A stretch of DNA of 64,000 bases from Paecilomyces variotii (GCA_004022145.1 RCNU01000015.1); one strand, 5' to 3'. Numbered from the stretch's first letter, positions 18,888 to 26,217 are shown. Translations and numbers: made by a program. Notes: generated by a model not told the origin, from the sequence alone.

Positions 18888-21569
18888 AACCGACATGTTC
18901 CTATGCTGATAAGAAGAAGTTCCACAAGGCAGGACCGACGAAAGGACCTTGCGTTCCGTTTGCGACCGAGACAGTTATGGGGATAGCCGACAACTGCTTT
19001 GCAATAAGTGTCTCGATTGCAATTGTGGATATCAGCGATCTAAGTATTTCGGGCATTAAATTGGACTGAACCAAGTATCTGAGCATTTCTGGCGATGTTC
19101 GTTCAATAGGACCATGTACCCAAGAATAGTTCATAATCACATCTTTTCAACCCAGTGGATGAAGACAGTGTTTGTGATGCCATTTATTTAAAGAAAATAC
19201 TCCTATCTTATCTTCAAGACACGTCTAAAGGCCTTGTATTTTGCGTAGTTCGAAGACAATCGATACTAGTGGCTCGTGTCAATAAAGTTATCGTGTAGTA
19301 TGAATGAATCCAGACTCATATTCCTCCGAATTACCCGCCTTCATCCCAAATGGGCCTTGCTGGGTTAGAATATTTACATTAATACCTATAGCTAGTTAGG
19401 TAGTTAGTATATCAGTAGATTATAAATTAGCATCACCCCTTCCCCATCAGGATTATATCTAAACATTTCACTCCATGGACCCACCCCCTCGAAATAATAT
19501 ATAAATTGTTAGAGGTCCAGGTAGAGTCTCGACAAACCAGGAGTTCTCCTTTTTGGTCGAGTGGCAGAAAGCCATCATAAATCAATAACATATCCGTGGT
19601 ATCGATTCTACATATAACTCTATTTGGACCGGATTTGCTGCGTAAAATATTTTTCATCCTCGAGGTTTCCCATATAAGATCTGCAAGAGCCGGAACAGCG
19701 ACATCCCCGTTAATTGATACCCAACTCTGCAGTAAAGTTGGACAACACTGGGTGGGTACAAGTTGTTCAACCTGGAGTATGCCACATATTGCGGGGGCCC
19801 AACAGTCATGCTAGGAAAACAGCAAGTCATCTGCAAGTGGCTTTCCTTTTCGGCGGACACCCTCGGGAGATGATGTCCAGCTGGCCTTGGCCGTTTCAGG
19901 CAAGGTCACCACCCAACCTTAGATTTGATACCGGTTGCTCTCAGATGATGTGTTGGAACGGGCCGGTTGGTTGGACAGGATAGGATAAGTAGTCACCGTG
20001 GACAAAACATGTTCTGGGGCTCCCTGGGTACTTAGCATTCTTGTCATCGCAGTAGAATGGGATATGTGTGTCAAAAGAAGTCACCGGCTGACCGGAATAT
20101 TATTACTGTACTCAAAAGGGTAATCAGCAGCGTACCAAGGCACTTTAGTCAACAATTTATCGACTGCTGATCAGATGATTAAATTAACATTCGTGGATGA
20201 GACCTTTTAAGACGCGGATCTTCCCGACAAGTCATCCATTCACGGGGCATGTCAGTCAGAGATGGACTGCTATCTTGTTGTACCTGGAATGCGCCAGCGA
20301 TGTGTTCCTTTATTGTACTCCTCAAAAGAAGACGGTTTCCTTGATAACGATAAGCGGATGGTTGGCGTCACGGCCATGTTATCGCTGACGATCTGGTGCC
20401 GTAGGTTGGCGGTGTTTGGTCTGCTTTTATTTAATAGTACTCTGGAGAAGAAACTGCTTGCCCCAGGCAGAAGTGATAGTGTACAATATGAGGAAGGATA
20501 TTCATCCAGCTGAAGCAACTGGGATTATATAAATATTTTCTGTGGGAGATTTCGTAGATTCAGGATGTTAGAAGTCTCCCGGGTGTCGCAGAGAGGATTA
20601 TTACTTACAGTTTCGCCCCACGGCCACGGGGGAGTAATAATAAGTTACGCTGGGCGGCCGTACTCTAGGCCAACCACCGACGACTTCGGTGCTCGACTTT
20701 CGCTGCTTAACACACCTTTATCGACCCCCTCGTCCTGCTCACTACCGTATCCTACCCCTACGCTCAGCTCCATTCCTTTGATAGTGTACCGCATTGGAGC
20801 TTCTGGCCTCTCTTTCGAGCCGTTTGTGTCGTTGTTGCCACTAAATCCCGTCCGTCATCGCCCGCCAGCTTCCTACGCCCAGACGACAGCTCAACTTGCG
20901 TCAGATCTCCAGGGAGATAAGCCGCGAAACGAGCACGACCAAAACTGCATACAGAGCTTCAGCTGGGAGGGAGAATCCTGGATAGTTACCTCAGGGAGTG
21001 CTGTTATCTCTTTGGACCTCATCGAGAATTGACCGATTCTTGAACTGTGACTGGATCCCGCACGTGGGACATCGCTGCGGCGTTAGCAGACATCCCACGA
21101 CTGCTTCAGGCCTGCTCACCTGGTTCTCTCACAGAGCCAGGACGAAGGGCAGGTCTCCGTCTTCGATCTGGCAAACTCTTCCCCGTATATACCCACCTCA
21201 GCCGCCTCCGACCGCCCTCATCTTCCTATCACCATAGATTCTGCTGCGTCTCCTCGTCAAAGAGACGCCCAGGACTCAGCTGCAGCTCCCGCTTCTTCAA
21301 CGGAACGTGGTGTCGAGTCTGAGTCTCTACGAACTACTGTCGACAGTAGATATACTGTTTCATCTGATTCACGGTCGTTACGAACTTCCAACCGCCGCCG
21401 TCGCCGCCGTTCATCACCCGACCCCTCGGACAATACCACTGCGGGGGAAGGAAGCTTACAGTGGGAGCAAGACAGAAGCGGGGCTGCTTCTGAAGAATAC
21501 AATATCAATCAACAATATTCCCGTGAAGAGGGGCGTTCGCGGTCTCCCAAGCGCAGGCGTTTGGCAAAT

Positions 21570-23701
21570 ATGCGACCCGATGGTGAAGTATCGACAAATT
21601 CGAATGGCTTCTCACAGACGTCCAACGGCCTCGCAGCATCACCACTAAGCAAGTCCTCCATCTCGAGCTCTCTGAATGGCCGCTCACTGTCTCGAAACAC
21701 ATCGAACGGACAACCGCAAGCGAACGGATCATCTAAAAAGTCTTCAAGTGCACCGTCATATTTTGGTCATGATCGGGAGGAGGTGACAAGAATTCTAATT
21801 CAGAGTTTATACGATCTGGGCTACAATGAATCTGCCGATACATTGACTCGAGAAAGTGGTTATCAACTGGAAAGTCCTGCTGTAGCTGCCTTCAGGAGTG
21901 CAATTCTGGATGGACAGTGGACAGACGCCGAGAACATATTGATCCGCTCTTTCCGCCGTGACGGTAGCAGTGGTGCTGTAGGTGATAGTGATGGCCAGAT
22001 TCAGAATGAACCAAGACTAGTCTTGGCGGAGAATGCAGACAAGAACGAAATGTTGTTTTGCCTCCGGCAACAAAAGTTTCTCGAGCTATTGGAAGCGCGG
22101 GATCTTGGTGCAGCATTAATGGTCCTTCGTCAAGAGCTGACACCACTCAATTATAATATCCCCCAGCTCCACGCTCTTTCAAGGTGAGATTAGATTCGAT
22201 GGGTCTGTCGTCACTCTTGCCTTAGGAGCGTATACTAAGCGGTCTTTTCATATAGTCTCCTCATGTGCCCCGCCGAGCATTTGCATGAACAAGCCGGTTG
22301 GGACGGACCTTTGGGTCCCTCTCGAGAACGATTATTGTCGGAATTATCAAGTGAGTTTTATACCTTCAAAGTCAAGTGTTTCATCGCATAAATGCTAAGC
22401 AGCACCAGAGTCCATATCACCATCGGTTATGATACCGGACCACCGTCTCGCTGTGTTGTTGAACCATGTAAAGCAGAGCCAGATCAACCAGTGTCTCTAT
22501 CACAATACTGCTGCGGCTCCCTCACTTTATTCCGATCATATGTGTGACAGGAATGATTTCCCGCTCCGCGCTACTATTGAGCTGAGCCAGCATTCCAACG
22601 AAGTCTGGTACTGTGAATTTTCTCATGATGGCACGAAACTAGCAACAGCAAGTCGAGATCACAGCGTCATAATCTACGATACTGCTACATTTACTGTTTT
22701 GCACAGATTCGTGGAGCACGAAGGGCCGGTAGCTCATGTGAGTTGGAGTCCAGATGACACAAAATTAATTGCGTGCTCTCAGGACAAAAAGGCTCGAGTA
22801 TGGAATGTAGAGGTAGGTGTCACCATTGCCCCTATTTCTGAACGCAAAGCTTACGGTTCCTTTGTAGACGGGACTCCTTCTTCTCACCATCGACCACCAC
22901 AGCGAGCCAGTAACAGCGGCAGCTTGGGCTGCAGATGGACAGTCTTTTGTAACAGCATCTCTTGATCTCACGTCGTCGCTTTGTCACTGGAGTATTGGAG
23001 GTGATCCATTGTACAGGTGGCCTGGGGCTTTCCGAGTCCAAGACTGTGCCATAACGCCAGATGGGAGACGGTTAATTGCGGCTGATGTCGATAAGAGAGT
23101 CCATGTTTACAACTTCTCAACACACGAAGAAGACTATTGCTTATCTTTGAAGAGCAAGCCAACATCTGTCACTGTTAGTCATGACTCGAGGTATATGCTG
23201 GTCAACCTCGCGGAGGGGCAGATACAACTTATCGATATTGAGACCACGGACGTTATACGACGGTTCCGAGGGCAGAAGCAAGGCGAGTATGTTATCCGAA
23301 GTACTTTCGGCGGTGCGGCGGAAAATTTCGTTGTCAGTGGTAGTGAAGGTAAAATATTTAATCTTCCAGTTTCTCCATGTTCTAACTTGGTGCAGACGCT
23401 CGAATATACATTTGGCACAAAGAAAATAGTACCCTCGTGGAGACATTAGAGGGTCACTTGTCCGGTTGTGTCAATGCAATCTCGTGGAACCCCGCCGATC
23501 CCGGCATGTTTGCCTCCGCCGGCGACGACCGAATAGTTCGAATGTATGTTAGCCATGTCTCCATCTAACGATCCTTCAGTATTAACACGATTTAGCTGGA
23601 CACGGGAACCTCCGAGTGACGCAGCAGCAGGGAAACGCAGAATACCTTCGTCAAACGGGTTTGCGCGTACAAGCGCGTTGCGATCGACGACGAGTCTTTA
23701 A
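21570..23701 (+). CDS. gid7: WD40 repeat protein WDR26/GID7 (LisH-CTLH + WD40; GID/CTLH ubiquitin ligase subunit). First AUG is 21570; the true start may be upstream.
   Basis: DREEVTRILIQSLYDLGY..SA..L.RESG (LisH), QQKFLELLE (CTLH), MIPDHRLAVLL, and WD repeats HSNEVWYCEFSHDGTKLATASRD and IRSTFGGAAENFVVSGSED. Confidence 0.88.
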
Positions 23702-24849
23702 CCCGGAAACACTCATAATCAAGTCATTCCATGTAGCTTCGTTCTGCCGTCTTGCATCATCCGGAGAGAATCATACCCAAGATTTCTTCTTTTTCCCTGA
23801 AAACATCGGGTCTCTTCTGCATTTTAGACATATTTTCCTCATCTGTGACTTGGCCCCTTGCAATGTTCATGCGCATTTTTGAGAAAGACAGCGGAGTGGA
23901 CCCTCTCTCATTTTGGCACACAAACATATCACACCCATTTCTAGGTCCTTGCATCACTGGTCATTGAACAAGTCTCACCATTTTTCATGTTGTTTGTTAT
24001 GCGAATTGTTCATCATCGGGTCGTGGTGAAACTGGTTGCGAGGCTAACTTACGGTGGCGGAGTGCGGTCCTGTGTCTTGCTTTTCCCTTACTCCATTTAC
24101 TCTGAGTATTTACCAGCAATTACGTCTGTTCGTATGTCTTTTTCTTTTAACCTCCGGTCTTTCATCGAAGATAAAATCGAGTAATGCATCGTCGTTCAGG
24201 TATACGTACGATATTAACTGGAAATGGTATCACGGCGAGAAGAAGTCTGCATGATTCATTACCACTTCAGTTATCTTCCACGCCGAACAGGATGAAAATA
24301 AAACAAAAGTCTCAATATATCATTTCTCTCATTCATACGGTAACTCATAATGGAGCTCTGATTAGGCTCTCAGAAACACGCCAAGTGGACGACTGATGTC
24401 CATAGTTCATGCCATTATTTGGAAAGTGAAAATTAACAATATCCCACTAGATAATTTGAAGAAAAGGCCGAAAGGCCCTTCGGTTTTGCTGTTTGATGGA
24501 TATTGAAAAGCTATAGCTGTTGCGGCAAGAAAGCGAAAAGGTGGATGTTAGCTTTGCTGGTTTGGATTTGGAATGAGTTGTGATGATAGGAACGGGGAGA
24601 CTCACCAATTTGGTATTTTTCCCATTTCCTCCACGCTTGTACCGGCCTTCCCTGTTGTTTCTTGTTTCTGGCTATGCTATGATGCAGCCAGAGAACGCAA
24701 TGTAACCATCTCTGGCCCTAAGATGGATTTTATCCATTGCCCGCTTGATGCTAGTTGCCCAGGAGGATCCCGCTTTCGACACGGGAGACTAAGAAAAGGT
24801 CTTGTAACAGGTGAGGAGAAAGAACATTCCGTGCAATAAGAGTCCTCCA

Positions 24850-26217
24850 TTAAGACAGCAGATCCGCGACTATGGATATGTTAGTTAAGAATGTACGGGG
24901 TAGCTGCACGTTTAATGAGGATGACTGACCATTCATAGGCATCTCATCAATCTGAGTAGAGTAGTACAACTCGATGTCTCGGAGGATTCTGACATCCTCG
25001 CTAGTGACGAAGTTGATGGCAACACCCTTCCGGCCGAATCGACCGCTTCGACCAATTCTGTGGATGTAGTTCTCACGGTTGCTGGGTAGGTCGTAGTTGA
25101 TGACAAGCGATACCTGTTGCACGTCGATACCACGGGCCCAGACGTCGGTCGAAATGAGCACTCGAGAGTTGCCCTGTCTGAAGTCCTGCATAATACTGTC
25201 ACGTTCCTTCTGCGGCATCTCTCCGTGCATGCTGGAGACAGTGAAGTTTGCCTCGCGCATCTTGTCGGTAAGCCAGTCGACCTTGCGGCGAGTGTTGCAG
25301 AAAATAACGGCTTGAGTGATCGTCAAAGTGTCGTAAAGATCACAAAGAGTATCAAACTTCCACTCCTCCTTCTCGACAGCAATGAAGTACTGCTTGAGAC
25401 CTTCGAGTGTCAACTCATCACGCTTGACCAGAATGCGCACTGGATCCGTCATGAATTTGGTCGTCATATCAAGGACGTCGTAAGGTAAAGTAGCGGAGAC
25501 AACGACAACCTGAGTTGCAGGAGGCAGGTAACGGTACACATCATAGATCTGCTCACGGAAACCACGGTTCAAGAGTTCGTCTGCCTCATCGAGGACTAGC
25601 ATCTTGATGTTGCGAGTGCGCAGGTGGCGGCGACGGATCATATCTGCAACTCTTCCGGGGGTTCCAGAGACGACATGTTGTCCATATTCAAGCTTTCGAA
25701 TATCCTCACCGACATTAGTTCCACCGATACAGGCGTGGCATTGGACGTTCATGTAGTCTCCCAAAGCCATCACGACGGACTGAATCTGGGTAGCAAGTTC
25801 GCGGGTAGGAGATAAGACGAGAGCTACAGTTTCGATAAGTATACACTATACATGCAGAGTCGCAAGATATCTCTTACCTTGAGTCTCACGGACAACGGTG
25901 TCAATGACTTGCAGGATACTAATTGAGAAAGTCGCCGTTTTACCGGTACCAGACTGTGCTTGCGCAATAGTATCGCGACCCTTGCAAATCTGAACGATTG
26001 CGCGAGACTGGACAGCGGATGGCGATTCATAACCATACGCATAGATACCGCGTAGTAGGTTCTCCTTCAAGTGCATGTCCTCGAAGGTCGGAGCAACCGT
26101 GACCTCCTTGGAGGTCGTAAACTCCATCCTATCTATACCAAATGTCAGCCTTGAACTGCAAATGGGCACGACCACCAGTAGCTTACCATCAGCCTTGCGA
26201 TCAATACCGTCCGCCAT
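24850..26217 (-). CDS. fal1: DEAD-box RNA helicase eIF4A-III / FAL1
   Basis: [35 protein letters not shown] (W typical of eIF4AIII) and [13 protein letters not shown]. Confidence 0.96.

Follow-up and report, generated by a model that had tools for sequence, protein, structure and literature searches.

A conserved CUG codon as the probable start of a long WDR26/GID7 isoform in Paecilomyces variotii

In vertebrates, WDR26 carries an N-terminal extension that is initiated at ACG or CUG, is described as conserved in all vertebrates and leads to two expected human isoforms of 72.1 and 81.3 kDa (Ivanov et al. 2011, PMC3105428). The same paper describes an AUU-initiated extension of fly WDR26, whose origin is judged independent of the vertebrate one, and its passages on WDR26 do not mention fungi. 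In the filamentous fungus Neurospora crassa, the cpc-1 leader exceeds 700 nucleotides (nt) and contains near-cognate codons that initiate N-terminal extensions conserved across Pezizomycotina (Ivanov et al. 2017, PMC5487733); the terms WD40, WD repeat and GID do not occur in that paper. In fungal 6-phosphogluconate dehydrogenase, a non-AUG start in the annotated 5' untranslated region (5'UTR) is described as adding a peroxisomal signal, resulting in dual localisation (PMC7214817). No literature linking fungal GID7/WDR26 to non-AUG initiation was found, although supplementary tables, which lay outside the search, might list the gene. Here we analyse a WDR26/GID7 gene on the plus strand of a 64,000-nt stretch of Paecilomyces variotii DNA (GCA_004022145.1 RCNU01000015.1), which as a whole is called the window. 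An earlier note, made from this sequence alone, had named human WDR26 among genes reported to have conserved non-AUG N-terminal extensions, and the account of Ivanov et al. (2011) bears this out.

The gene very probably yields two isoforms by leaky scanning, one started at CUG 21168 and 134 residues longer than the other, which starts at AUG 21570. Cap-dependent scanning would proceed through a long, unspliced and AUG-free leader, with at least 551 nt before the CUG, and 43S complexes would first meet CUG 21168-21170 in the fixed context TC G N N CUG GC. Some of these complexes would initiate there with initiator methionyl-tRNA to produce the longer protein. The rest would scan a further 402 nt, kept free of AUG in every frame, until they reach the first AUG at 21570, with A at position -3, and would produce the shorter one. 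The long isoform alone would contain the basic clusters RRRRRR and KRRR, along with a conserved Ala-(Asp/Asn) motif at its N-terminus and a motif rich in proline. That translation begins at the CUG, how much of each isoform is made and what the extension does are inferred. The earlier note had proposed a non-AUG start with leaky scanning, and had named three observations that would speak against it: a transcription start site (TSS) downstream of about 21450, an upstream ATG-bearing exon spliced into the frame, and stops and frameshifts in orthologous extensions. None of the three was found; the proposal is supported, and the start can be narrowed to CTG 21168.

By homology, the gene encodes WDR26/GID7 of fungi, the presumed subunit of a GID/CTLH ubiquitin ligase. 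The open reading frame (ORF) of exon 1 (P0001, 366 residues), which served as the query for protein comparison, has the LisH-CTLH N-terminal region of the WDR26 type. Its residues 222-263 match the Pfam family LisH_WDR26 (PF23627) with an E value of 5.1e-20 and 71 bits against a cutoff of 27, and a CTLH-containing TPR1-like match in the same search is weak (E 0.0014, under its cutoff). The downstream exons match WD40 (PF00400; E 3e-17 and 8.9e-11) and provide the C-terminal WD40 beta-propeller. Full-length relatives are named WD40, WDR26 or 'related to GID7', and named relatives come from Aspergillus, Penicillium, Onygenales, Lecanoromycetes, Leotiomycetes and others. All five introns are GT..AG, as placed by joints in RNA contigs of three public studies (X1, X8 and X14), and the coding sequence ends with TAA at 23699-23701.

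The segment between the two proposed starts is, on the evidence of its orthologs, protein-coding and conserved. Pfam matches in P0001 start only at residue 222. Coverage of the 366-residue query, with the part before the Met included, is 88-99% for named models from Aspergillus, Penicillium, Paracoccidioides, Diplocarpon and Botrytis, and in an alignment of 21 proteins the motifs (F/V)DLA(D/N)N.P, D.P..PIP, RRRRR and PSPKRRRLANMRPDG are common to Eurotiales through Botrytis. Over the same range, a PSPKRRRLAN motif lies 5' of Met 21570. The N-termini of the models 5' of the DLA motif all differ, and several models are flagged as partial without Met. For a broader ortholog survey, the exon-1 alignment was scanned against metagenome contigs, which gave 80 fungal loci (L numbers below) whose relatives include Sordariomycetes and Pezizomycetes. 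These loci hold 55 distinct orthologous ORFs, 48 located by a peptide motif and 7 by other routes. The frame is open for 84-142 codons 5' of the conserved Met in every locus reaching far enough, with the extension conserved as protein and not broken by stops or frameshifts, and no in-frame ATG occurs upstream of that Met in the 48 ORFs. Third-position mismatches are the most frequent in 18 of 18 locus pairs, and the ratio of nonsynonymous to synonymous substitution rates (dN/dS) of the extension is 0.23-0.71 in the 17 pairs with computable dS, a range to be read with the caution that protein-guided alignment pushes dN down.

These patterns bear on the possibility that the region is an untranslated 5'UTR kept for regulation at the RNA or DNA level, with AUG 21570 as the sole start. 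Nucleotide elements and hairpins are indeed conserved just 5' of the CUG, and many public models begin at AUG. However, such an arrangement is highly improbable, because some 84-142 codons stay open and frameshift-free in 55 distinct ORFs, third-position changes dominate with dN/dS below 1, amino-acid motifs outlast the DNA divergence between classes, and conservation of the frame ends abruptly at the CTG/GTG.

At this 5' edge of coding conservation, a single CUG/GUG codon is conserved together with its context in the loci compared. The homologous codon, placed by the peptide-motif anchor, reads CTG 40 times and GTG 8 times among the 48 distinct ORFs; since the anchor motif demanded Leu or Val at this site, only the choice of codon and its context are free observations. 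The seven further ORFs from looser searches add six CTG and one GTG, which brings the totals to 46 CTG and 9 GTG (looser-search loci with CTG: L009, L017, L018, L028-30, L049 and L072; with GTG: L069). In a subset of 29 ORFs obtained with the first motif anchor, CTG encodes the DLA/VLA Leu in 29/29. By comparison, control leucines that are invariant in the LisH region of the same subset are CTG in 1/29, 8/29 and 14/28 and use five to six codons, and the share of CTG among the 841 Leu codons in the exons of the subset is 18%. G occupies both -3 and +4 in all 48 ORFs, which had been located without use of context. The next-to-last codon before the start is NTC throughout the 29-ORF set, and residue 2 is Ala in 48/48. 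ORFs with GTG read xAVADQ; the nearest named relatives of one such locus (L059) are Sordariomycetes (Cercophora, Podospora, Colletotrichum, Fusarium and others). A locus with CTG (L077) shows 96% identity to a Trichophaea protein; Tuber, Morchella and further Pezizomycetes make up the rest of its named relatives, and the public models of these are confined to the post-Met part. A swap of Leu for Val that keeps a near-cognate codon, combined with invariance at the codon level, is as predicted for an initiator and not for an ordinary Leu codon.

The DNA further upstream behaves differently. An in-frame stop lies 3-4 codons away in 6 of 47 ORFs and within 20 codons in 23 of 47, and six ORFs are without any in-frame near-cognate codon between the upstream stop and the CTG/GTG. 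In Eurotiales-like loci, the DNA just 5' of the start is read in three frames (AHLVL, CSPGS, LLTRF) and is thus not conserved as protein. A role of CTGGCAG as a 3' splice site was ruled out, as the window, L002 and L005 are without the AG and the RNA contigs are colinear. The earlier note had listed CTG 21120, CTG 21168, ATA 21234 and ACG 21300 as in-frame near-cognate codons; all four are in frame, and CTG 21168 alone is conserved across the loci examined. It is improbable that the extension is translated here mainly from one of the other three. CTG 21120, 16 codons 5' of 21168, and an AGG are the only near-cognate codons in frame between the TAG at 21084 and CTG 21168, and CTG 21120 is in frame in L002 too. 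However, this codon has C at -3 and sits inside a conserved hairpin, its DNA is read in other frames in L005 and L006, and an upstream start would have no space in the six ORFs whose stops lie 3-4 codons ahead of the conserved CTG. Initiation at ATA 21234 or ACG 21300 would lose the motifs right after 21168, including the conserved Ala 2.

Neighbouring plus-strand ATGs lie at 20565 and 21570, and the stretch 20568-21569 contains none, exactly as the earlier note had stated. This gap of 1005 nt is the largest between plus-strand ATGs in the window, the runner-up being 558 nt. From the composition of the region, 8.5 (first-order) to 12 (mononucleotide) ATGs are predicted for it, and the largest gap in 200 first-order Markov simulations of 64 kilobases was 417 +/- 72 nt on average and 706 nt at most, with 1005 nt or more in 0/200. 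The nearest upstream stops in the WDR26 frame are at 21030, 21048 and 21084, and the frame is open from 21087 to ATG 21570, so that the open stretch was correctly delimited by TAG 21084-21086. Its 161 codons, previously given as the length of the extension, hold as the maximum possible, whereas the conserved start reduces the length to 134 codons.

Four public runs were compared over 19800-24300, and three of them (X1, X8 and X14) yielded spliced contigs. The X1 contig (record 4; 5109 nt, with five introns removed) starts at 20617 and is colinear through 22181; the contigs of X8 (record 16) and X14 (record 5) start at 20732 and 20726, respectively. All three starts lie upstream of 21450. The leader is without a splice joint in any contig of the three studies, whose RNA spans at least 436-551 nt 5' of the CUG with no ATG-bearing exon spliced on. 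Uncovered parts, such as 20551-20616 in X1, do not count as evidence for the TSS. A metatranscriptome contig (X2) was set aside because it is unspliced across all introns and hence represents DNA or pre-mRNA. An Rfam search over 20500-21700 returned merely two minus-strand snoRNA-like matches (E 0.38 and 0.7), far under the gathering scores. Canonical initiation on an ATG-bearing upstream exon that is spliced onto the extension is scarcely credible in the face of 1005 nt without a plus-strand ATG and of a contig that is colinear from 20617. Public models of some relatives, e.g. A. fumigatus and A. niger, do have an upstream ATG. However, the N-termini of such models do not align with one another, and the stops 3-4 codons upstream in 6/47 ORFs leave no space for a splice acceptor.

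Leaky scanning past the CUG to AUG 21570 is supported indirectly, by an invariant Met, by A at -3 and by the scarcity of ATG between the starts. All 21 aligned proteins share Met 21570, A is found at -3 of the main AUG in 44/48 ORFs, and annotated models of Pezizomycetes and many Sordariomycetes start at this position (63-65% query coverage). The 48 extensions, with a mean length of 350 nt, contain 13 ATGs in any frame compared with 319 in equal lengths 3' of the AUG (a control of 47 ORFs with at least 4 ATGs each), and the count of CAT within the same extensions is 256. In the 200 nt before the start, 10 ATGs occur in 47 ORFs, 40 of which have none; the control region 1200-1400 nt upstream holds 140 ATGs in 33 ORFs, only 1 of which has none. 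The extension of the window itself holds no ATG in any frame. Such purging of ATG from all frames is expected if scanning ribosomes must cross the extension to reach the downstream AUG.

The extension is conserved in every complete locus, which would also suit a CUG acting as the sole functional start, with Met 21570 merely internal and no short isoform made. In addition, 13 of the 48 ORFs carry one out-of-frame (+1) ATG within the extension, at a distance of 47-56 nt upstream of the main ATG, which could intercept leaky scanners. We nevertheless consider a CUG-only gene quite unlikely. Most scanning ribosomes normally move past a near-cognate codon without initiating. The scarcity of ATG in the extension is expected only if ribosomes scan across it, and both the Met and its A at -3 are preserved. 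Moreover, 11 of the 13 out-of-frame ATGs open a 19-codon ORF that ends as an AUGA overlap with the main start, so that reinitiation is still possible. The 19-codon ORF, whose ATG lies 56 nt before the main ATG in its carriers (L023, L024, L032, L033, L036, L038, L039, L040, L046, L074 and L076), is conserved in position and length and not in peptide. It may modulate the share of scanning ribosomes that reach the main AUG.

Two basic clusters would distinguish the long isoform, and the NRRRRRRSS and SPKRRRL strings noticed earlier are both present. In the RRRRRR cluster, R104 and R105 are invariant in 21/21 proteins, and a cluster of the RRxR type is found in 47/48 ORFs. In the second cluster, R156 and R157 do not vary in the 21-protein alignment, and conservation of K155 and R158 reaches at least 90%. 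The 45 residues before the Met include a K/R-R-x-R cluster in 48/48 ORFs. The classical monopartite nuclear localisation signal follows the pattern K-K/R-x-K/R, which KRRR 21549-21560 fits. Judging from this motif pattern, nuclear targeting is the most likely role of the basic clusters.

The leader also contains conserved RNA structure close to the proposed start. The consensus of the hairpin at 21109-21155 has 19 pairs and -27 kcal/mol over 6 sequences, with 1 compensatory pair and a largely invariant sequence. In the window, its minimum free energy (MFE) is -31.2 kcal/mol compared with -24.7 +/- 3.1 for shuffled sequences (z -2.1). The hairpin DNA is read in one frame in the window and L002, in a second in L005 and in a third in L006, which indicates conservation of the nucleic acid rather than of an encoded protein. 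A universal upstream hairpin was rejected, as Eurotiales-like loci have a strong one, the GTG clade a moderate one and Pezizomycetes-like loci none; other clades have different GC-rich stems 10-18 nt upstream of the start. In the GTG clade (L050, L052, L056, L059, L061, L064 and L066), a 10-pair stem-loop, GCGGGA-N11-UCCCGC, occupies about -47 to -19, and no compensatory changes were seen in it. In Leotiomycete-like loci, the CUG lies in the hexaloop of a 6-base-pair stem, GUCGUC[CUGGCA]GACGAU; Lecanoromycete-like loci have UUCGUC...GACGAA, with a closing pair compensatory to the Leotiomycete-like stem. The stem was noticed in the L019-L048 group (e.g. L023:2129-2234) and in L010/L012/L042. 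It shares sequence with the VVLADD codons, and neither Eurotiales- nor Pezizomycetes-like loci have it.

Besides the anchor, the alignment and the out-of-frame ATGs mentioned above, several points weigh against initiation at CUG 21168 followed by leaky scanning. The in-frame CTG 21120 could initiate too. Contigs cannot map a TSS, and shorter transcripts starting 3' of the CUG are conceivable; the library type of X1 was taken as RNA by guess, though its contig is spliced. The linker after the AUG has a lower dN/dS (0.08-0.38) than the extension. The 48-55 ORFs are not independent: grouping at 50% extension identity gives 22 clusters, none of which mixes start codons; the unified scan behind this count requires the start context by construction and was used for clustering only. 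A downstream hairpin of the kind that boosts near-cognate initiation was not found, the mean MFE of +7..+71 being -3.3 kcal/mol (z +0.38, 46 sequences) against a crude, swap-based shuffling. Ten loci end at a contig edge before the position of the start, and L063, alone among the complete loci, has an open extension without a recognisable homologous start. In L063 (1824-2411 and upstream), the QVLGRRRR motif contains a CTG, flanked by G at -3 and +4, that might start a shorter extension.

Table 1. Features of the WDR26/GID7 locus, with positions counted from the first nucleotide of the window.
Feature	Position	Strand	Remarks
5' leader, transcribed, unspliced and ATG-free	20617..21167	+	5' limit is the contig end, not a mapped TSS
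GC-rich hairpin of Eurotiales-like leaders	21109..21155	+	ends 12 nt 5' of the CUG
Proposed CUG initiation codon	21168..21170	+	context tcGAT CTG GC, with G at both -3 and +4 and C at +5
Putative N-terminal extension, 134 codons, Ser/Arg/Ala-rich, no Pfam domain	21168..21569	+	ortholog conservation, dN/dS
First basic cluster, RRRRRR	21393..21410	+	long isoform only
Second basic cluster, KRRR	21549..21560	+	ends 9 nt before the AUG; long isoform only
First mRNA AUG, proposed short-isoform start	21570..21572	+	context aatATGc; invariant Met
WDR26/GID7 gene body	21570..23701	+	LisH-CTLH region, WD40 propeller, five introns
Five introns (approximate)	22184-22255, 22351-22408, 22813-22867, 23349-23395, 23544-23595	+	RNA contig joints

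The surroundings of the gene (Table 1) are compact. A divergent neighbour on the minus strand at 19800-20550 has an intron at 20014-20135, seen as a CT..AC joint in separate contigs, and its RNA contigs stop at 20550, with the GID7 contig beginning only 66 nt away, at 20617. This suggests a very compact bidirectional promoter between the two genes. On the other side, the minus strand at 24850-25845 contains a long ORF with DEAD-box helicase motifs, judged by eye from the translation. The X1 contig of GID7 extends 1709 nt past 24300, and convergent transcripts may therefore overlap.

The P. variotii extension seems to be the fungal counterpart of the non-AUG WDR26 extension already described in vertebrates and flies, and the comparison of orthologs supports well that the phenomenon extends over all filamentous ascomycete lineages sampled here. 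A probable non-AUG start is thereby pinned to a single triplet by unusually clean comparative evidence. A WDR26/GID7 with two isoforms, hitherto described for animals, is suggested across filamentous ascomycetes, which would indicate that the ligase has a conserved requirement for this subunit in two pools. Such a start also explains a widespread annotation trouble, namely that the N-termini of public fungal models disagree: models among P0002-P0062 and P0123-P0241 begin at unrelated upstream ATGs, are partial without Met or are fused to neighbours (1050-1330 residues), and others begin at the AUG and drop 84-142 conserved residues. A broader idea, doubtful at present, is that the long non-AUG isoform answers a recurrent or ancient need of the GID/CTLH ligase and that in fungi the CUG/GUG codon, its fixed context and the nearby upstream GC-rich hairpin together set how much nuclear isoform with the basic clusters is made relative to a cytoplasmic AUG isoform. 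If so, the location of the ligase would be coupled to how stringently the cell selects start codons (eIF1/eIF5, stress), and the arrangement would have been kept from Pezizomycetes to Eurotiales, as well as in vertebrates and flies.

Among the systems described so far, vertebrate WDR26 resembles this locus in that the gene is orthologous (LisH_WDR26), an in-frame extension precedes a conserved first AUG, the start is near-cognate and two isoforms are expected. However, the fungal extension is longer (134 codons), uses CUG or GUG in a fixed TC-G-N-N context and spans fungal classes, and the likeness described here is one of gene and arrangement. Drosophila WDR26, as characterised in the same account, shares a clade-conserved non-AUG extension but differs in its start codon, AUU; the fungal case would be the third lineage with a non-AUG WDR26 extension. 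As in the published description of cpc-1, a conserved Pezizomycotina extension appears to arise from a near-cognate start in a long leader. In contrast to cpc-1, which has upstream ORFs beginning with AUG and several near-cognate candidates, the GID7 leader is AUG-free and a single codon is conserved. Finally, 6-phosphogluconate dehydrogenase, in the account available, is likewise a fungal protein to which a non-AUG start adds a targeting signal; that signal is peroxisomal (peroxisomal targeting signal 2), whereas the candidate signals of the GID7 extension are basic clusters resembling those for nuclear import.

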